Below the pieces are notes generated by a model. It saw only the letters and a program-made list of their open reading frames with translations. It was not told the origin of the DNA and did not search any database. A stretch of DNA of 64,000 bases from a virus, in the UHGV virus genome UHGV-0382128, one strand, 5' to 3'. Positions 6,544 through 64,000 of the stretch are shown piece after piece. A program made the position numbers and the translations under genes. Each line of letters begins with the position of its first letter. Within the stretch, counting starts at the first letter, position 1.

Positions 6544-7419
6544 ATGTCTATCAAAGAACGCATGATTTTACCTGACCAGGGCCTCCACGTCGATGGTGGC
6601 CAGTACGATATGGTTAACCCCTTCTCGTCTGGTCAAAACGGTCCGGTCGGTCAGGTTGGTAAGTTCGTTACCAACGCCCACCGTCTGCGTCGTAACGTAA
6701 TCGCACGTGTGATGGAATTCCCTCGTTGGGTTGATTACATGCCGAACCCACAACTGTGGCGTCAGGCAATCAAATCGTTCATCGAGGTTCACACCACGAT
6801 TACCGGTTTGGACAAATCCCTGAGTGCTGAGTACGTACAGACCCAGCAGGGACGTAACAACCGCGTTCAGTACGAAGCTGGACTGGTAACGGAAGCACTG
6901 TCTTCTGTTACACACACTACCCCGGATAAACTGGGTAAAGTGTATCAGAACATGCTCTGGGCGTGGCTGGTTTACGGTGTTTGTGATCCGCACACAGGCC
7001 ACCCTGGTCTGGCGGCAATCAACCCGAACGTGCCGGATCACCTGCCGGATATGTACAGCATGACCGTACTGTATTTCGAACCGGATGCGTATCAGCGTAA
7101 ACCGCAGAACGCTTGGTGGCTGACGAACATGGCTCCTGAATCTAACGGTCAGGATATCGGTGAACGTGACCCGAACACCGGTCCTCAGACCAACGAACTG
7201 TCCATCACCTTCACCTCCCAGCAATGGACAGGTTGGGGTCCGATGCAGGCAGCTCAGAAAGAACTGGAGCGCATGAAGCTTTACGGTCTGCGTCCTTACG
7301 AACGCAAACTGTGGCTTACTCCGTCTCAACAGACCAACGGTATCAACCCAGACGTCGATGCTACGGCTGGCGGTTATCGTTCTGTGTCCGACGAGCAGAT
7401 GGCAAATCAGCTTCGTTAA
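6544..7419 (+). CDS. Highly expressed structural protein (291 aa); candidate tail tube
   Basis: Same codon bias as the upstream gene, 3-nt spacing, terminated by the hairpin at 7436..7462. Confidence 0.35.
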   Translation: MSIKERMILPDQGLHVDGGQYDMVNPFSSGQNGPVGQVGKFVTNAHRLRRNVIARVMEFPRWVDYMPNPQLWRQAIKSFIEVHTTITGLDKSLSAEYVQTQQGRNNRVQYEAGLVTEALSSVTHTTPDKLGKVYQNMLWAWLVYGVCDPHTGHPGLAAINPNVPDHLPDMYSMTVLYFEPDAYQRKPQNAWWLTNMAPESNGQDIGERDPNTGPQTNELSITFTSQQWTGWGPMQAAQKELERMKLYGLRPYERKLWLTPSQQTNGINPDVDATAGGYRSVSDEQMANQLR

Positions 7420-7476
7420 GCAAAAAAAATAAGTTTACCTACCTCCGTCAAGGAGGTAGGTAGCTTTTATTTTTCT
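7420..7476. terminator. Bidirectional rho-independent terminator
   Basis: A-run 7422-7429, stem tacctacctcc / ggaggtaggta with loop gtcaa (7436-7462), T-run gcttttatttttc; lies between convergent genes. Confidence 0.8.
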
Positions 7477-8024
7477 TCTTGCGCCAGATGTTTACGGGCA
7501 GAAGAACGAATAATTAAGTTTTTCATCTGCATTAACAGCAGGAACGTAGAGAGTAAATCGAACGTGGTGGGTGGTGTGTTGGTGGTGTCGCTAGGATAAG
7601 CAACACGCCACAGTGTTAGTTCTGTGTCGCCATTTCCTTTTTCGTTACGTATAATTTCGTTGTTGTGCAAGCTAACCAATTCAGATTCTAACGCTTCTAA
7701 TACATCTTCACCGAACTCAATCCGTAAGAGTTGTTTGAAACGGATAACGTAACCGGCGACGACATTACCGACAGAACTGCTACGTATTTCGGTTAAGAAA
7801 CGCTGGTAGCCGTTGATAGTGTGTGGGATCGTTTCAGCAGGCCAGCCCGCGATGTGTGGAAACGCATCACCTAAAGTGGCTTGCATAGACAACGTAAAGA
7901 TTTCACCGATCTGGTTAAGATGACTAATGACTTCTGTACGGTTCATGACGTTAGGAAGCGGTACGGGCCGTTCTGTATTCGGCTTTTCTTGAGCCATGGG
8001 ATAACCATCGAATAAGTTTTGCAT
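7467..8024 (-). CDS. Hypothetical protein (~185 aa; start revised to the second Met)
   Basis: Track ORF 7467..8063; the first ATG lies inside the upstream terminator hairpin, while the ATG at 8024..8022 is preceded by SD aggaga (MQNLFDGYPMAQEK...). Confidence 0.5.
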   Translation of the reverse strand: MQNLFDGYPMAQEKPNTERPVPLPNVMNRTEVISHLNQIGEIFTLSMQATLGDAFPHIAGWPAETIPHTINGYQRFLTEIRSSSVGNVVAGYVIRFKQLLRIEFGEDVLEALESELVSLHNNEIIRNEKGNGDTELTLWRVAYPSDTTNTPPTTFDLLSTFLLLMQMKNLIIRSSARKHLAQEEK

Positions 8025-31087: not shown

Positions 31088-31152
31088 AAAAAGAAAAAAA
31101 ATAAGAAAGTTAACCTACCTCCGAAGGGAGGTAGGTGCTTTTATTTATTTCG
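31088..31152. terminator. Bidirectional rho-independent terminator
   Basis: A-run, stem cctacctcc / ggaggtagg with loop gaag (31114-31135), then tgcttttatttatttc; between convergent genes. Confidence 0.8.
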
Positions 31153-36544: not shown

Positions 36545-36585
36545 AAAAAATGAAAATACCCTACTCCTGTCTAGGAGTAGGGTAG
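36545..36585 (-). terminator. Rho-independent terminator (CCCTACTCC family)
   Basis: Stem accctactcc / ggagtagggt, loop tgtcta; T-run on minus strand, then SD and the next start. Confidence 0.7.
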
Positions 36586-56409: not shown

Positions 56410-56455
56410 AAAAGATTACCCTACTCCTTCGGGAGTAGGGTAGCTTTTATTTTAA
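56410..56455. terminator. Bidirectional rho-independent terminator (CCCTACTCC family)
   Basis: Stem taccctactcc / ggagtagggta, loop ttcg, then gcttttatttt; between convergent genes. Confidence 0.8.
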
Positions 56456-57015: not shown

Positions 57016-57054
57016 ATGGAAAAAGAATTAACCCTACTCCCGGAGGAGTAGGGG
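57016..57054 (-). terminator. Rho-independent terminator (CCCTACTCC family)
   Basis: Stem ccctactcc / ggagtaggg, loop cgga, T-run on minus, then SD aggag. Confidence 0.7.
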
Positions 57055-58605: not shown

Positions 58606-59115
58606 TTAGAAGAACGGCTGGTTTGGAATGACAGCGTACTCTAAAATGAACATGTGTTCTGGGGCGTCTTCTTTACGCCAGACTTTGTGTGTCGACACAA
58701 GTTTTTCCAGAATCGTTAAGAAACTGCGCTGGCAGTATGTGTTTTCACCAAGCAGTAGATTTTGAAGTTCTACAGTAGCGTCCATATACGCCTGTTTAAA
58801 GACTAAATTACGGTTATACTGCCCGGTAAAATTCCAAAGCAAGACTTTCCCTTCTTCGGTTTCTTTTACCGTTGGTCGTAAACCACAAATCCACAGTAAG
58901 GCAAGGTTGACGTTCCAGTCAAACTCTAAACCTTCTTCTTCGTCATCACCGAATGCTGTGGGTAAAGCATCGTAAAATTCGTGTTTCTCTGCGAATTCTT
59001 CATCCGACTTAATCTCGTCTTCGATACTGCTTCGGACGATACTGTAAACGTCTTTCGCGGTCAATTGTGCGGCTTTTGTAATGCCTTTATACCAATCGGT
59101 TACTACGATGCTCAA
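58606..59115 (-). CDS. Hypothetical protein (169 aa)
   Basis: ORF overlapping the SLT gene by 4 nt. Confidence 0.45.
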   Translation of the reverse strand: MSIVVTDWYKGITKAAQLTAKDVYSIVRSSIEDEIKSDEEFAEKHEFYDALPTAFGDDEEEGLEFDWNVNLALLWICGLRPTVKETEEGKVLLWNFTGQYNRNLVFKQAYMDATVELQNLLLGENTYCQRSFLTILEKLVSTHKVWRKEDAPEHMFILEYAVIPNQPFF

Positions 59116-59837
59116 AGGGTAACTCCTCTATTGATTGGAAAACTCGTGTTTATCGTATCCCAAATTCTACTAACTTCCGCCAGTTGAATCTGACGTGGTG
59201 TTTTCTTCGCAAACGCAAGCTGACGTGGGGCCGAGCCCACAACAACAGGCACATCGATTTTCGCGCTATAGAACGCGGCGTCTTTCATAAAGCCTGCCAT
59301 TTCTCGTTGTGCTGCTCGAGATTTGCTTTTGATTCGCGTGTGAGCGCCACTTTCACCCCAGTGGTAAGCTAACGCAATTTCAGCCATGGTGGGCTTGCGT
59401 TTGAGTCGTTTGGTTAACCCCCTCTCAAGATGTTTAACATACGCGGCAGCCAGCAAAACAGCATTACGCGGATTATATAAATCGGCGTTCTGACTAAGAC
59501 CTAATTCTTTTCCATAAAGCCTTAGCAGATTACGCTTGGTACTTGGAAGCATCTGTACCAGGCTGTGTGCTCGTGAGCTTTTGTTGTAAGCCTTGGGATC
59601 AAAACGTGATTCGCGATAAATCAGCGTAATCATCAGCTTAGGATCAACGCCTTGCTTTCGTGAGATTTCCACAATTAACGGGCTGACTTTTTCGAACCGA
59701 TGTTGGATTTGTGCAAACTCACGCTGATGCTTAGAATGTGGCGTTGACGTTGACGCCTGTGCGTTAAACGCGAAAAGTGTTACCAGTAAAAGAAAGAAGA
59801 TACGAAACATTTTGTTTCTCCAGTTGGATTTATACAT
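59112..59837 (-). CDS. Signal-peptide-bearing lytic transglycosylase (SLT domain), endolysin candidate (241 aa)
   Basis: N-terminal MFRIFFLLLVTLFAFNAQAS; SLT core LIYRESRFDPKAYNKSSRAHSLVQMLPST...LLAAAYVKHL (catalytic Glu-Ser and the SxxGxxQ block). Confidence 0.7.
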   Translation of the reverse strand: MYKSNWRNKMFRIFFLLLVTLFAFNAQASTSTPHSKHQREFAQIQHRFEKVSPLIVEISRKQGVDPKLMITLIYRESRFDPKAYNKSSRAHSLVQMLPSTKRNLLRLYGKELGLSQNADLYNPRNAVLLAAAYVKHLERGLTKRLKRKPTMAEIALAYHWGESGAHTRIKSKSRAAQREMAGFMKDAAFYSAKIDVPVVVGSAPRQLAFAKKTPRQIQLAEVSRIWDTINTSFPINRGVTL

Positions 59838-59910
59838 TTCCGTATTCCGTAAGACGAAATGACGGCGCGGACAGCTAATACTCCTTTGTTGTGTGCCCTA
59901 ATGATAATAT

Positions 59911-60471
59911 CTATTTAAAAGAGTTTGGAATTAATGACTCTGCTTCTTGGTACAACTTATCAGGTAAGTATAACGTGTAGCACTGCCTCCTCGGTTCAAG
60001 TTTTTTGTAAAGCCACAAAAAGATTTCTTGTCTTTCCCAGGAATCTAACCACCCATTTGCCATTCCCAGTGGAGGGATAGCAACGCTGGTATTCAGATCC
60101 TCAGCACAGTCTGCTAGTGCGCTAATGCCCGCAGTAACATAAGAAACCTGTGACTTTAAACGCCAATGGGTTTTCGTGGGGAGCAAGATACACTTTTCAT
60201 CAGAGTAAACGTAAACGCTTCCAATCTTAATTTCGTCTTCACGACACCGCTTACGATAATCCTGATAAAGGTTGGGGTAGCGTTCACGGCACGCCAGTGC
60301 AATACCGCGACCCATCGCTCCTACGCAGTTAATGGTAACGACTTTATAGTCTTCGGGTGCATTAAAAAGATCGTTACCAATTTCAGATTCTTTACGTACC
60401 GTTAACATAACGAAACGTCCGGAGTTGGTGTGTAGTATTAAAACGTGTACCGCCGATTGATAGCTCGACAA
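59911..60471 (-). CDS. Putative macro-domain (ADP-ribose binding/processing) protein (186 aa)
   Basis: VVTINCVGAMGRGIALACRERYP (glycine-rich loop as in macro domains) and later VAIPPLGMANGWL; by eye only. Confidence 0.45.
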   Translation of the reverse strand: MSSYQSAVHVLILHTNSGRFVMLTVRKESEIGNDLFNAPEDYKVVTINCVGAMGRGIALACRERYPNLYQDYRKRCREDEIKIGSVYVYSDEKCILLPTKTHWRLKSQVSYVTAGISALADCAEDLNTSVAIPPLGMANGWLDSWERQEIFLWLYKKLEPRRQCYTLYLPDKLYQEAESLIPNSFK

Positions 60472-60495
60472 GTATAGCGATATATGTTTTACCCA

Positions 60496-60864
60496 TTATC
60501 GATTTTTCGTAATCCATTGCTTGACCGCCGCTTCTAAACCTTCGTGTTGTAAGCCCAGGCGTTGCATAGTCAGTGCCAGGTTGAGCGTGTGTACAACCTG
60601 TTCACGGAACTGATGATCGTTCATACGGTCCCAGACCTTCTCTACTGAAATGTTGTGTTTCCAGAGCAAATAAGCTTCGCGACACGATGCGCGACGAACC
60701 AAGCTGGGTTTAACAAAAGGCAACTCGATTTCAGGCAAGTAACCTAAAAGCTTAACTAGCGGCGTTACTTGCGTCTTACCGAAGTCACCGCACTGATAAC
60801 AAATTTGCAGAATATCAATTTCATTCAACGGTATACCGTAAATTGATGGGTTCTCTGTGAACAT
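60496..60864 (-). CDS. Hypothetical protein (122 aa)
   Basis: ORF only. Confidence 0.45.
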   Translation of the reverse strand: MFTENPSIYGIPLNEIDILQICYQCGDFGKTQVTPLVKLLGYLPEIELPFVKPSLVRRASCREAYLLWKHNISVEKVWDRMNDHQFREQVVHTLNLALTMQRLGLQHEGLEAAVKQWITKNR

Positions 60865-61132
60865 TCATATTCTCCTCAGGCTCGAAATGTGATTCGGGTG
60901 GCAATGTCCCTAAAGCCCCTTGGATACAAGCCGTCAGCGTAGGTTTGCCAAAACAGACCTTACCTATTGTCCCCACATTGGGATGTTGTAAGAACGCTTT
61001 TGCACGTTCGTATTCCTTCCAACAAATACTCGTATCCAAACCACCCACTCCGTACGATTTTAACATAATTAGCTCTCCTGACGTAAATTTCTCACACTCA
61101 TAGTGAGGTACGTCAGGAGAGCTTGATTGTTT

Positions 61133-61582
61133 TTAGAATGTTTTGCTAAAATCGACCCACTCACGATCGTGCGAGTAAACCGCCTGATAGCCGCGTCGGA
61201 TGAAATACTCTTTTGCTTCTTTACATTTCGCATACATGCCAGTAACAATCTCACCGAAAACTTCATCAGCTGCAATTGCTTTGAAAATCTCTTTCATTAC
61301 ACCCCGTTGACGATAGTCTGGGAGCACGTATACCGAACGTATCTTAAGTGAACCGTTACGATTCCGATAACTACAGTATCCTACCGCGACATCATCCTGA
61401 TACACCAGAACTATGCAGTTACCTTCGATCAGCTGTCGCGCATTTAACTTCGGCACCGACGTTTTGATTTTCAGTAACGTGGCCTGGTGGTCTAAGTAAC
61501 GGTAGTGTAGTTTGAGTAAATCGGCAGCTTGTCGCTCACCGACTTTAGAAGATGCGTTCAACAAATAAATTTCCATTTGCAA
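61133..61582 (-). CDS. GNAT-family N-acetyltransferase (149 aa)
   Basis: Motif A-like IRSVYVLPDYRQRGVMKEIFKAI. Confidence 0.55.
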   Translation of the reverse strand: MQMEIYLLNASSKVGERQAADLLKLHYRYLDHQATLLKIKTSVPKLNARQLIEGNCIVLVYQDDVAVGYCSYRNRNGSLKIRSVYVLPDYRQRGVMKEIFKAIAADEVFGEIVTGMYAKCKEAKEYFIRRGYQAVYSHDREWVDFSKTF

Positions 61583-61608
61583 ACCTTAGAGACGCAAAAA
61601 AAGTAAAA

Positions 61609-61737
61609 TTAAAACCAACGCGCGATGACGAATGCCGCAGCGGCTAATATGGCCGTGGTGATTATTAATCCACCCCATGAAAGTTCCGCATCGTATAATG
61701 CGGATATCGCTACATTCGTAGTGTTTATCGAGGTCAT
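61609..61737 (-). CDS. Small hydrophobic peptide (~41 aa), not in the ORF track
   Basis: Hand translation MTSINTTNVAISALYDAELSWGGLIITTAILAAAAFVIARWF with SD aggagc; coordinates approximate. Confidence 0.3.
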   Translation of the reverse strand: MTSINTTNVAISALYDAELSWGGLIITTAILAAAAFVIARWF

Positions 61738-61794
61738 TTTCTGCTCCTAGTAATACCCTCACGCCGGAGGGTATCTTCTGGATTATTTGGGTGG

Positions 61795-61893
61795 TTAATC
61801 TTCGAACGCCCAACGGTGTCGTTTAATCAGCCAGTTTAAACCTTTACCAATTAACCACAACGAGCCAAGTGTTAACAGAACCCCTACAACCAT
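61795..61893 (-). CDS. Small hydrophobic peptide (~32 aa), not in the ORF track
   Basis: Hand translation MVVGVLLTLGSLWLIGKGLNWLIKRHRWAFED with SD aggagaggg; coordinates approximate. Confidence 0.3.
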   Translation of the reverse strand: MVVGVLLTLGSLWLIGKGLNWLIKRHRWAFED

Positions 61894-61903
61894 ATTCCCT
61901 CTC

Positions 61904-62083
61904 CTAATTCCGCCATTCGCATTCGCGTTGACGCCAAATTGAACCCCACGATAGTTTAATCAGATAAGATGAAACTACCCATAAAATCATCACCACACAA
62001 AACATGACATAAAGAACCGCTAGAATGGACATGAAGCCAAACCCTGCCGCATCCACAATACGACGGAACCAATCAGTTTGCAT
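61904..62083 (-). CDS. Small membrane protein (~59 aa)
   Basis: Track ORF 61904..62089 begins at a TTG; ATG at 62083 (MQTDWFRRIVD...) has SD aggag. TM FGFMSILAVLYVMFCVVMILWVV. Confidence 0.35.
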   Translation of the reverse strand: MQTDWFRRIVDAAGFGFMSILAVLYVMFCVVMILWVVSSYLIKLSWGSIWRQRECEWRN

Positions 62084-64000
62084 AAACAATTTTTACTCCT
62101 TCGTTATACACCGCAGGCAATGTCACTCCTTCCGGTTCGATGACACAGTACGATGCTTCATTAAGTTTAGAATGGACCTCAGCTTCGTGGGAAACTACCA
62201 AGAGTTGTGAAAATTCTCCCGAGTTTGCTAACGTTTTAATAAAGCCGACCAGGTTATTACGGTGTTCCTCGTCCATGCCTTCCGAAGGCTCATCCAAAAG
62301 CAACGGAAACTGATGCAACTTCAGCGCTTTGTACGCAGTCAGTCTGAACATCAGATTAAATATAGCACGCTGTGCCTTAGACCCTTTACGCACGTCAGGA
62401 ACAGGCTCAGGGTGCGTTTTTAGCTGGACAGGAAAAGTATAATCCAAATCGCCGTCAGTGAGATCACAGGGCATAACACGCATGGGGTACGTCCAGACCT
62501 GTTCGATATAACGCGTCATTAACTCTGTGATTCTAACGATAGCGTTGTAAAAATACTTTCTAAGTACACCCTTTTCTGGCGAGAAGGCTTGAATCATCAG
62601 TTTGTTATTGAACTGCTGGGCTTGTAAGTCAGCAAGTTCACGTTCCAAACTGTTGAGTTGGTTCAATTCATTTTCCATCTGACGATAACGCTCGCGTGCG
62701 GTTGTAAAAGCATCCAGCTTCCCTTCCCGCACTCGTAAGAGTTCCTCGACGACCGTATTTGTCAACGTAACCTTAACATCACTCTCTAACCGTTCGAATA
62801 ACGCACTGAAATCATCTACAGCACGTTTAACATTCACTAGATAGGTAAGTGTCGTGTTAGCCAGTTCGTGCTCTCTACGACGCATTGAGAGCATCTCTGT
62901 GGCTTTACCTAATCGCGACTGTTGGAAGGCGATTTTCTGTTGTAAAGCACCATCGACGTTACCAACGGCCGCTACGGCATCCTGCCATTCTTTTTCCGCT
63001 TTCACTAACCGTTGTCGGGTTTCATGGTACTCAATAGCAGAGTACAATTCACCGTCAAACGCTGCACATAGACTCCCGAACTGCTCGCGAGATTCTGTGA
63101 AAACGTTACGTTCTTGCAAACGCTTAAAGAACATGCTCAATATCGGGTCCTTTGAATACGTCAGCACAATCTCACGAACCTGCCGCATATAAGTTACATC
63201 AGATTCTAATTCAACACGATCGCGTAATAAGGTCTCTAGCTGTGTTTGAAGTTCCGTCCGTTGCTGCTGTTGACCACGAATCGATGACTCGAGTTCAGGT
63301 AAAGAACGCGTAACACCTGGCCGAAACTTAAACCGACACTGCGGACAATCCACTTCTGCCGTTTCTAAGTAGTGGTTACGTTCGTGATTTAAATTCTGTA
63401 AAACGTTCTCCACTCGCTGGAGTCTATCCCGTAATCCTGCGGTTTTTTGATCCATCACCAGAAGACGTTCTTCCAAAACATTGAGTTTCTCGGTTGAATG
63501 AATAGCGTCCAGTGTTGTTCCCAACCGTTGTCCCCAAACACGCGCATCGGTAGCCGCACGAAGTTGGTCTAAATTAACGTTATCGTTAAATAAACCTGGA
63601 AAGAGATGTTCGGTGTCCCACTTGGTAAGTAACTCACGTAAACGTGCCAGTGTGTTCTTGAGACCTTCGTGGTTCCGCATCAGGTAGTCTTGTCGTGTTG
63701 ACTCATCCATCAATAGCGATAAATCTTTATTCAACATCGATACCTCTGTTTCGGTAGAAACGACGGCTTCGCGGGCTGTCGCTTCATTTTGTCGGGCGGC
63801 CAGTATCTGTTCATCAGTAGGCAACCCACCACGATGTTGTAATATTGCGTCGATGGTTGGACCCAAACCGTTTAATAACGCTTGGATTGTTTCGATCGTG
63901 ACAGCACGATTTAATCCTGGCAACTGTTCGATTTCTCGGTTCAGTTCACGTAAATCCGATTCCAAACCTTTTAATCTCGTTGCTAATTGTTGTCGTTCTT
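62073..64000 (-). CDS. SbcC/Rad50-like recombination-repair ATPase, partial (N-terminus outside right edge)
   Basis: Long coiled-coil with zinc-hook-like CPQC (DCPQCRFKF), C-terminal FPLLLDEPSEGMD (Walker B/D-loop). Reading frame is open from 64000; the track start at 63965 is a TTG. Confidence 0.6.
   Translation of the reverse strand, partial: ERQQLATRLKGLESDLRELNREIEQLPGLNRAVTIETIQALLNGLGPTIDAILQHRGGLPTDEQILAARQNEATAREAVVSTETEVSMLNKDLSLLMDESTRQDYLMRNHEGLKNTLARLRELLTKWDTEHLFPGLFNDNVNLDQLRAATDARVWGQRLGTTLDAIHSTEKLNVLEERLLVMDQKTAGLRDRLQRVENVLQNLNHERNHYLETAEVDCPQCRFKFRPGVTRSLPELESSIRGQQQQRTELQTQLETLLRDRVELESDVTYMRQVREIVLTYSKDPILSMFFKRLQERNVFTESREQFGSLCAAFDGELYSAIEYHETRQRLVKAEKEWQDAVAAVGNVDGALQQKIAFQQSRLGKATEMLSMRRREHELANTTLTYLVNVKRAVDDFSALFERLESDVKVTLTNTVVEELLRVREGKLDAFTTARERYRQMENELNQLNSLERELADLQAQQFNNKLMIQAFSPEKGVLRKYFYNAIVRITELMTRYIEQVWTYPMRVMPCDLTDGDLDYTFPVQLKTHPEPVPDVRKGSKAQRAIFNLMFRLTAYKALKLHQFPLLLDEPSEGMDEEHRNNLVGFIKTLANSGEFSQLLVVSHEAEVHSKLNEASYCVIEPEGVTLPAVYNEGVKIVYAN

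Follow-up and report, generated by a model that had tools for sequence, protein, structure and literature searches.

We analysed a 64,000-nucleotide (nt) stretch of the virus genome UHGV-0382128 (hereafter, the window), focusing on a gene of the GNAT acetyltransferase family that lies on the minus strand near the end of the window. On the same strand the gene is followed by a conserved intergenic hairpin, a miniprotein gene, a further small open reading frame (ORF) and a macro-domain gene. A preliminary description of the locus had recognised the acetyltransferase by its motif A and had raised the possibility that it works as a functional pair with the macro-domain protein. Below we describe the GNAT gene, the hairpin and miniprotein that accompany it in related phages, and the macro-domain gene, and then weigh what the acetyltransferase might do.

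The GNAT gene and its phage family

The mechanically called ORF on the minus strand spans 61133-61582 and opens at a TTG (61582) that lies two codons before an ATG at 61576. All six near-identical database proteins are 147 amino acids (aa) long or start at the ATG at 61576, and the alignment of the whole family begins at the same methionine. Because the near-identical proteins and the family share this residue, the gene almost certainly starts at the ATG, which gives a coding sequence at 61133-61576; the TTG is probably unused. Its 147-aa product, which begins MEIYLL, carries the motif A stretch VLPDYRQRGVMKEIFKAI at residues 84-101. A profile search bore out the preliminary identification: three Pfam models scored above their cutoffs (Acetyltransf_1, 33.1 bits against 20.7; Acetyltransf_7, 32.9 bits against 27; Acetyltransf_10, 27.0 bits against 23.6), and the protein matched the PHROG family phrog_3810 (‘acetyltransferase’) end to end with E = 1e-25. 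The AlphaFold2 model (predicted local distance difference test score, pLDDT, 92.9) had GNAT topology, with a mixed beta-sheet in the order beta1-alpha1-alpha2-beta2-beta3-beta4-alpha3-beta5-alpha4-beta6-beta7. Profiles and model thus predict a small, stand-alone GNAT-fold acyl-CoA N-acyltransferase. The ratio of nonsynonymous to synonymous substitution rates (dN/dS) was 0.016 and 0.053 in comparisons with two related metagenomic phages, and we concluded from these values that the gene is under strong purifying selection.

Motif A of GNAT enzymes usually reads Q/R-x-x-G-x-G/A, follows strand beta-4 and binds pyrophosphate. In the window protein the loop is R89-Q-R-G92-V-M94. Across the family R89 is invariant, G92 is kept in at least 90% of members, and the last position is Met in at least 90%; in a few members, e.g. 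those of SPN3US and pEa_SNUABM_11, Lys or Tyr stands in place of the Gly. Five other polar residues (H24, Y67, R71, R80 and W140) are invariant in the family and probably line the acceptor site. One database copy of the GNAT, P0006 (157 aa, on a 224,967-bp contig found in NCBI/ENA/Logan), was 99% identical over residues 1-103 and wholly divergent thereafter, which suggests a frameshift, either in the assembly or in the genome itself.

The subfamily is narrow and phage-only. Among 1.84 billion cluster representatives it had 14 representatives at E ≤ 1e-3, and the gene occurred in about 50 phage records, all SPN3US-like nucleus-forming jumbo phages; the carriers found by protein search were Seoulvirus, Erskinevirus, Machinavirus, Wellingtonvirus and related metagenomic phages. 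A megablast search of window positions 59000-63000 against 50,697 phage records gave no near-identical match, and the close relatives of the window were four IMG/VR contigs of 107-225 kb; that is, the close kin of this phage are metagenomic only. In all 17 fetched relatives the gene sits in a co-linear block on one strand, in the order SMC-like gene, a few tiny membrane-type ORFs, GNAT, small ORF, 1-5 variable genes, macro gene, SLT transglycosylase and a 169-aa protein. The preliminary placement of the GNAT in a phage accessory region was sound, and the region is a variable one.

The named members of phrog_3810, among them SPN3US gp075 (YP_009153485), SEGD1 gp196 and genes of Erwinia phages, are 34-40% identical to the window protein over their full length, occupy the same slot after the SMC-like gene and have the same hairpin and miniprotein. 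This 34-40% range for full-length homologues compares with 44-68% for the neighbouring genes, making the GNAT the most diverged gene of the block, and the window protein represents the most diverged branch that bears the hairpin and miniprotein. It is thus a diverged member of a family whose homologues already carry an acetyltransferase annotation. Iyer et al. (2021) cite the SEGD1 protein AMR59843.1 (gp196), which we confirmed as a homologue of the window GNAT; they place it nearest to the GNATs that modify ribosomal proteins and suggest that it may act on the translation apparatus. Our literature search found no experimental work on the phrog_3810-type family.

In several deeper relatives (L020-L023, L035-L038 and L010) the slot after the SMC-like gene holds two or three tandem GNAT paralogs, which suggests repeated duplication and diversification at this locus. 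A group of Salmonella phages (SPFM1, 5-10, 12, 14, 15 and 20) at first resembled SPN3US-like genomes that lack the GNAT, with junk tblastn matches only; this candidate was rejected, the region being present in fragmented form. In the corresponding records (LR535901, LR535903-08, LR535911-13 and LR535917) the SPN3US region aligned as 40 short pieces covering about 55% of it. The pattern indicates numerous indel errors in the deposited sequences, not deletion, and protein searches miss genes in such records. Because sequencing or assembly error accounts for the gap, these phages are unusable as a natural GNAT knockout.

The intergenic hairpin and the downstream miniprotein

Between the GNAT and the next gene lies a conserved stem-loop RNA (minus strand, 61071-61123). 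Its 5' arm (AGCUCUCCUGACGUA, 61123-61109) and 3' arm (UACGUCAGGAGAGCU, 61085-61071) form an outer stem of 13-15 bp, and a small inner hairpin (CUCACUAUGAGUG) stands between the arms. In the window the stem starts 9 nt past the GNAT stop codon and stops 4 nt before the ATG of the miniprotein gene, whose Shine-Dalgarno sequence (GGAG, 61078-61075) lies inside the 3' arm. The minimum free energy was −33.6 kcal/mol (z = −8.2). The same element was present in all relatives that carry the downstream miniprotein ORF, and its base pairing is maintained by compensatory change: in 19 sequences the 13-bp outer helix was 94% paired, and 7 of the 13 pairs had changed on both sides. None of 500 shuffles reached the observed values, and slid structures were only 37-59% paired. 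Arms with such double changes include AGCACUCC/GGAGUGCU in SPN3US and AGCUUCCC/GGGGAAGCU in Wellingtonvirus, and the region also contains a near-invariant block, TTTACG..GGAGAGCT.TTATGTT. The distance from stop codon to stem was 5-9 nt in 18 of the 19 sequences. A search of the hairpin region against Rfam gave no match. We rejected the idea that the hairpin is a genome-wide repeat, as it occurs in a single copy in the 64 kb and the common terminators of the window have another stem (CCCTACTCC/GGAGTAGGG).

Judging by the footprint of the ribosome and the position of its helicase, termination on the GNAT would bring a ribosome into the base of the stem. Because the stem stands so close behind the GNAT stop codon and hides the ribosome-binding site of the miniprotein, we infer that translation of the two genes is coupled through the hairpin.

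The miniprotein gene (81 aa; minus strand, 60821-61066; phrog_28329) lies directly 3' of the GNAT. It follows the GNAT in 48 of about 49 GNAT-carrying phage records, on the same strand and 60-190 nt downstream, and all 17 fetched relatives had the miniprotein or a recognisable derivative. Four extra metagenomic lineages of the miniprotein had the GNAT and the hairpin upstream in every case, and no miniprotein without a GNAT was seen in the 48 phage records and these four lineages. Its dN/dS was 0.07-0.08.

The miniprotein is built of two modules. The N-terminal module, M[LF][NK]...CW.EY.R..FL, is the part that is always retained. The second, H.NVGTIGKVCFGKPTLTACI, resembles the N-terminus and P-loop of elongation factor EF-Tu: its segments NVGTIG.V and TLTA.I align to EF-Tu residues ~13-32, and the module as a whole spans the first ~35 EF-Tu residues, i.e. 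strand beta-1, the P-loop and the start of helix 1. The window miniprotein matched four NCBIfam EF-Tu models at 1e-4; such matches were found in 8 of 11 family members, the best with E = 5e-8. A miniprotein profile searched against 5.8 billion proteins returned 21 phage members, followed by ~117 genuine EF-Tu N-terminal fragments. Miniproteins of Erwinia phages contain an exact 12-residue stretch of EF-Tu, and a 36-nt stretch of the Stratton miniprotein gene shows 89% identity to the tuf gene of every one of 5,426 E. coli genomes. The likeness extends to the nucleotide level, and the second module most likely derives from a 5' fragment of a tuf gene that was captured and then kept.

In comparison with EF-Tu itself, the miniprotein covers ~35 of 394 residues and has no G domain. 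Its P-loop is degenerate (GKVCFGKP versus GHVDHGKT in EF-Tu), and the AlphaFold2 model, at a pLDDT of 50.5, predicted no autonomous fold. Because of the degenerate P-loop and the low model score, the miniprotein cannot be a GTPase and probably depends on a partner for folding. The residues C15, C47 and H28 are invariant. GenBank records of some relatives already carry the labels ‘putative elongation factor Tu’ or ‘putative GTPase’, so that the EF-Tu likeness is not new; we found no paper that discusses it. PADLOC models had no match to the GNAT, the miniprotein or the next ORF downstream.

That ORF (122 aa; minus strand, 60496-60864; phrog_11720, 9e-31) stands between the miniprotein and the macro gene. 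It was found in most but not all relatives, and we treat it as context outside the module.

The macro-domain neighbour

The macro-domain gene lies at 59911-60408 on the minus strand and encodes 165 aa from the ATG at 60408. Its mechanical ORF runs to a TTG at 60471, and all relatives begin at the Met equivalent to M22 (the ATG at 60408); because the alignment of relatives begins there, M22 is probably the true start. The preliminary description had placed this gene one gene away from the GNAT. The macro gene is indeed close by and on the same strand, ~660-725 nt downstream depending on which macro start is taken, but two ORFs intervene here (60821-61066 and 60496-60864, both with PHROG families), and in relatives the number of genes between the two varies from one to five.

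The same description had linked the macro protein to O-acetyl-ADP-ribose, and this link did not hold. Its best matches are all of the DarG/TARG1 type: besides the Pfam Macro model, it matched the DarG models of NCBIfam (1.7e-35) and PADLOC (1.5e-36) and the DarG macrodomains in the PDB (5M3I, 1e-25; 5M31, 2e-20). The equivalents of N22, K80 (the catalytic Lys), H82 and W83, residues with a demonstrated role in Thermus aquaticus DarG (TaqDarG), are conserved as N48, K100, H102 and W103, with N48 and K100 in invariant columns, and the protein keeps the PTKTHW motif and the Asn of VTINCVG. Compared with full-length DarG, it has no C-terminal DarT-binding domain, as expected of a phage orphan form, and it scores below the NCBIfam cutoff (122.9 versus 250). 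The protein is thus of the DarG/TARG1 type and not of the MacroD/YmdB type of O-acetyl-ADP-ribose deacetylases.

It shares 61% identity with AdfM of Erwinia phage Asesino. AdfM is a chimallivirus protein, and PhiKZ AdfM strips the ADP-ribose added by DarT2 from DNA (PMC13309987, 2026). When co-expressed in E. coli alone, with no GNAT, PhiKZ AdfM neutralises DarT2, and Asesino AdfM localises to the phage nucleus (PMC13309987). Because of this published activity and the identity to Asesino AdfM, the function of the macro protein is predicted to be self-sufficient and unrelated to O-acetyl-ADP-ribose; its similarity marks it as an AdfM-like, anti-DarT DNA ADP-ribosyl glycohydrolase.

We then considered the proposed functional pair, in which acetylation by the GNAT and the processing of ADP-ribose or O-acetyl-ADP-ribose by the macro protein would act on a shared target or pathway. 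Several observations speak for such a pair. The genes share a strand and are not separated by a strong terminator, and a search for co-occurrence found both in every SPN3US-like relative examined, as well as in the deeper relatives L019 and L023; in L019 a 41-aa ORF alone separates them. In addition, a different GNAT overlaps a macro start in the unrelated jumbo phage Moabite. The co-occurrence holds only within the vertically inherited block, however. Macro-like genes were present in 264 phage records of many genera, as against ~50 for the GNAT; Cronobacter phage CR5 and Vibrio phage pVa-21 keep the block from the SMC-like gene through the macro gene to SLT with the GNAT absent, and macro genes without the GNAT were also found in phiKZ and more than 200 other phage records. 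Hidden GNATs in these two block-keeping phages (a 130-aa ORF of pVa-21 and the ORFs between the SMC-like and macro genes of CR5) were ruled out by Pfam and hhalign. Conversely, in the L020-22 contigs two or three tandem GNATs are followed by an NrdB-like gene (our own reading of the sequence), and the macro gene is absent from the contig.

Neighbourhood counts pointed the same way. Our comparisons drew on 80 viral loci and about 25 annotated regions. The 80 viral contigs with an AdfM/DarG-like gene were reduced to 34 lineages, in which the two genes on either side of the macro gene were scanned against Pfam. Among the best 25 of 58 families, the commonest neighbour was DarT (14 times), followed by integrases and SLT, and none of the GNAT families occurred more than once; a single weak GNAT neighbour could escape this count. 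A jackhmmer search with 15 GNAT seeds against the 971 ORFs of the 80 loci, its sensitivity bounded by that seed set, found no GNATs outside the SPN3US-like clade.

Moabite is the single independent case of adjacency. In this Serratia phage, genes 058/059 (L024 3523-4432) are a GNAT-superfamily gene and an AdfM-like macro gene whose start it overlaps by 38 nt. As a relative of the window GNAT the Moabite protein was rejected (hhalign probability 0.6%), the two being alike in motif A only, and one adjacency amid very GNAT-rich jumbo genomes is insufficient to support a pair. The macro match scores of Pectobacterium phage vB_ParM-25 equal those of Moabite.

Because of this distribution (264 versus ~50 records, the CR5 and pVa-21 blocks, and the 34 lineages), the co-occurrence of GNAT and macro gene is best read as inherited synteny. 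Taken with the 1-5 intervening genes and with the AdfM data, which have a DarG-type protein acting alone on DarT2-modified DNA, the distribution largely refutes the functional pair, and we regard such a pair as very improbable. We concluded that the GNAT and the macro protein do not work together. Seen by itself, a GNAT beside a macro gene is one more accessory acetyltransferase, next to a gene with a published, independent job as the anti-DarT factor AdfM; the useful outcome is that the apparent pairing reflects shared inheritance, not a functional link.

Candidate functions and the surrounding transcription unit

The explanation that we prefer overall is a two-gene module of GNAT, structured hairpin and miniprotein, predicted to carry out translation-linked protein acetylation independently of the macro gene. 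We hold it tentatively, with a confidence that falls a little short of even; its observed components (the identity of the GNAT, its independence from the macro gene, and the conserved unit of GNAT, hairpin and miniprotein) stand much more firmly. In this module a ribosome ending on the GNAT would open the stem and allow the miniprotein to be made, so that both products would appear together. The GNAT, active with acetyl-CoA, would then transfer acetyl to an amine on some translation-related protein. That the substrate is such an amine is a separate and more doubtful proposal, which we consider possible but distinctly less probable than the module as a whole. Candidate targets would be EF-Tu or a related factor, a binder of the part of EF-Tu that the miniprotein resembles, or the miniprotein itself, which may serve as a pseudo-substrate, adaptor or decoy. 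The module as a whole would provide an accessory function in host takeover or counter-defence. Tandem GNAT paralogs and a variable neighbourhood that includes AdfM are typical of conflict genes, and we take them as supporting context.

Precedents exist for a phage acetyltransferase acting on a specific host protein. AcrVA5, a GNAT of the phage world, acetylates Cas12a. Rac of phiKMV acetylates the alpha subunit of RNA polymerase, as cited in PMC7824862. Both are likewise small GNATs encoded in accessory regions, and neither has a detectable specific sequence relationship to the window GNAT. In E. coli, the GNAT enzyme RimI acetylates the N-terminus of EF-Tu (PMC9079301), and an ADP-ribosylating toxin is known to attack the P-loop of EF-Tu (PMC9825190).

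A number of observations weigh against the module as we propose it. Structure and sequence searches of the GNAT returned only generic members of the superfamily, whose substrates range over proteins, polyamines, amino acids and antibiotics. The RimI model TIGR01575 reached 17.4 bits (E = 0.0037), far below its cutoff of 86.4; because of this shortfall, the label ‘putative ribosomal-protein-alanine acetyltransferase’ carried by homologues in Erwinia phages is unjustified at the family level. RimI, an N-alpha-acetyltransferase of ribosomal protein S18 as well as of EF-Tu, is also structurally no closer to the window GNAT than dozens of other GNATs are, and the positions of its catalytic Glu and Tyr, judged from the alignment, are probably not conserved. 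The general-acid Tyr of many GNATs (SSAT-type) is replaced by Phe125 in at least 90% of the family, and the last position of motif A is Met instead of Gly or Ala. RimI-type GNATs have their general-acid Tyr at the same position.

On the side of the partner, the Asp equivalent to the acceptor in the EF-Tu P-loop varies among miniproteins (Asp, Glu, Cys or Ala). In Wellingtonvirus (L010 5517-5952; L035, L036 and L037) the miniprotein is divided between two ORFs that overlap in different frames: ORF-A, with the N-terminal module, follows the hairpin and ends ...AAA*, and ORF-B, the EF-Tu-like part, opens with the Met of a conserved SFSM. Four diverged genomes share this split, which represents either two genes or a programmed frameshift. 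In L019 the GNAT is accompanied by the N-terminal half of the miniprotein alone; in L023 and L020-22 it has neither miniprotein nor hairpin; and the module variants of deeper relatives include those with two or three tandem GNAT paralogs. The hairpin could alternatively be a terminator or attenuator, a processing site or a promoter-associated DNA element. Finally, co-inheritance within one phage clade is not independent functional evidence.

Other explanations take the GNAT to be something different. The least improbable is that it is a lone small-molecule acetyltransferase, acting on a polyamine, an amino acid or analogue, an antibiotic or a nucleotide-linked sugar, to which the miniprotein is unrelated. 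The best PDB profile matches include the thialysine/diamine acetyltransferase SSAT2 (26.6 bits, 4e-5) and phosphinothricin acetyltransferases, the best NCBIfam match was ArsN2 (8e-7, far below cutoff), and strands beta-3 and beta-4 carry invariant arginines (Arg71 and Arg80) that may suit an acceptor with a carboxylate or phosphate. All of these matches are weak and under the curated cutoffs, though; as regards SpeG/SSAT enzymes, the likeness consists of the weak SSAT2 match alone, and the SSAT catalytic Tyr aligns to Phe125. Phages of the same clade do encode working spermidine acetyltransferases (PMC9992855), but the characterised ones belong to another, SpeG-like paralog: from SPN3US, that study tested YP_009153389, and the Erwinia-phage SpeG-like enzymes are 73% identical to bacterial proteins (PMC9992855). 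We therefore rejected a spermidine acetyltransferase identity, as YP_009153389 differs from the gp075 homologue of the window gene, YP_009153485. A lone enzyme would also leave the strictly conserved, hairpin-linked miniprotein unexplained, and we consider a small-molecule role unlikely, although less so than either of the two that follow.

If the GNAT were instead a toxin-like enzyme of the TacT/AtaT/ItaT kind, which acetylates aminoacyl-tRNA, the EF-Tu-like miniprotein could be its antidote or modulator, and the pair would tune or stop host translation. There is a thematic link, since aminoacyl-tRNA is the ligand of EF-Tu; a small GNAT tightly coupled to a small partner gene is reminiscent of toxin-antitoxin systems; and the invariant arginines might bind RNA. 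Toxins of this type need a catalytic Tyr, however, and that position is Phe in the window family. Moreover, no GNAT-toxin family of NCBIfam or PADLOC matched, no ribbon-helix-helix (RHH) or DUF1778 antitoxin was found, the small ORFs upstream have no Pfam match, the partner gene lies downstream instead of upstream, and a lytic phage needs translation. We regard this role as improbable, and to the same degree we doubt that the protein is a pseudoenzyme, i.e. a non-catalytic or CoA-binding scaffold. The Phe at the general-acid position, the Lys or Tyr that takes the place of the motif A Gly in SPN3US and pEa_SNUABM_11, and the apparent lack of an acidic residue at the RimI-type general-base position (judged from an alignment with RimI) would be in keeping with a loss of catalysis, but many active GNATs do without those particular residues. 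R89 is invariant, G92 is retained in at least 90% of members and the predicted fold is intact (pLDDT 93), which argue for an enzyme; dN/dS of 0.02-0.05 indicates tight constraint, though this would also be compatible with a binding role.

Returning to the module of GNAT, hairpin and miniprotein, the result most worth pursuing is the linkage of a phage-only GNAT subfamily to a probably tuf-derived miniprotein through a covarying hairpin in which the ribosome-binding site is buried. It may be that in nucleus-forming jumbo phages the GNAT and a hairpin-coupled EF-Tu mimic together make up a two-component device, not described before, that is directed at the translation machinery of the host; we rate this idea as unlikely, on a par with a small-molecule role. 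In one version, the miniprotein would present or imitate the N-terminus and P-loop of EF-Tu so that the GNAT acetylates EF-Tu; in another, it would be a decoy for a host defence factor aimed at this region of EF-Tu, e.g. an ADP-ribosyltransferase directed at the P-loop, such as TreTu. If the two products did act jointly on EF-Tu or on its attacker, this would be a new route by which jumbo phages manipulate or protect host translation, and it would give a function to genes that are mislabelled ‘elongation factor Tu’, ‘GTPase’ or ‘ribosomal-protein-alanine acetyltransferase’ in ~50 phage genomes.

Lastly, we considered how the block is transcribed. No strong intrinsic terminator was found on the minus strand from 62073 to ~57050, and for this reason the block from the SMC-like gene to the 169-aa protein is probably a single long minus-strand transcription unit. 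Between the SMC-like gene and the GNAT the window has two tiny hydrophobic ORFs on the minus strand, at 61609-61737 (42 aa) and 61904-62089 (61 aa); relatives have 3-5 mini-ORFs in this interval. Strong intrinsic terminators recur elsewhere in the window, each consisting of a stem, either CCCTACTCC/GGAGTAGGG or TACCTACCTCC/GGAGGTAGGTA, and a T-run behind it. They lie at 56417-56442 and 57032-57053 on the minus strand, and also at 7418-7480, 31099-31150 and 36557-36584, and appear to punctuate the genome.

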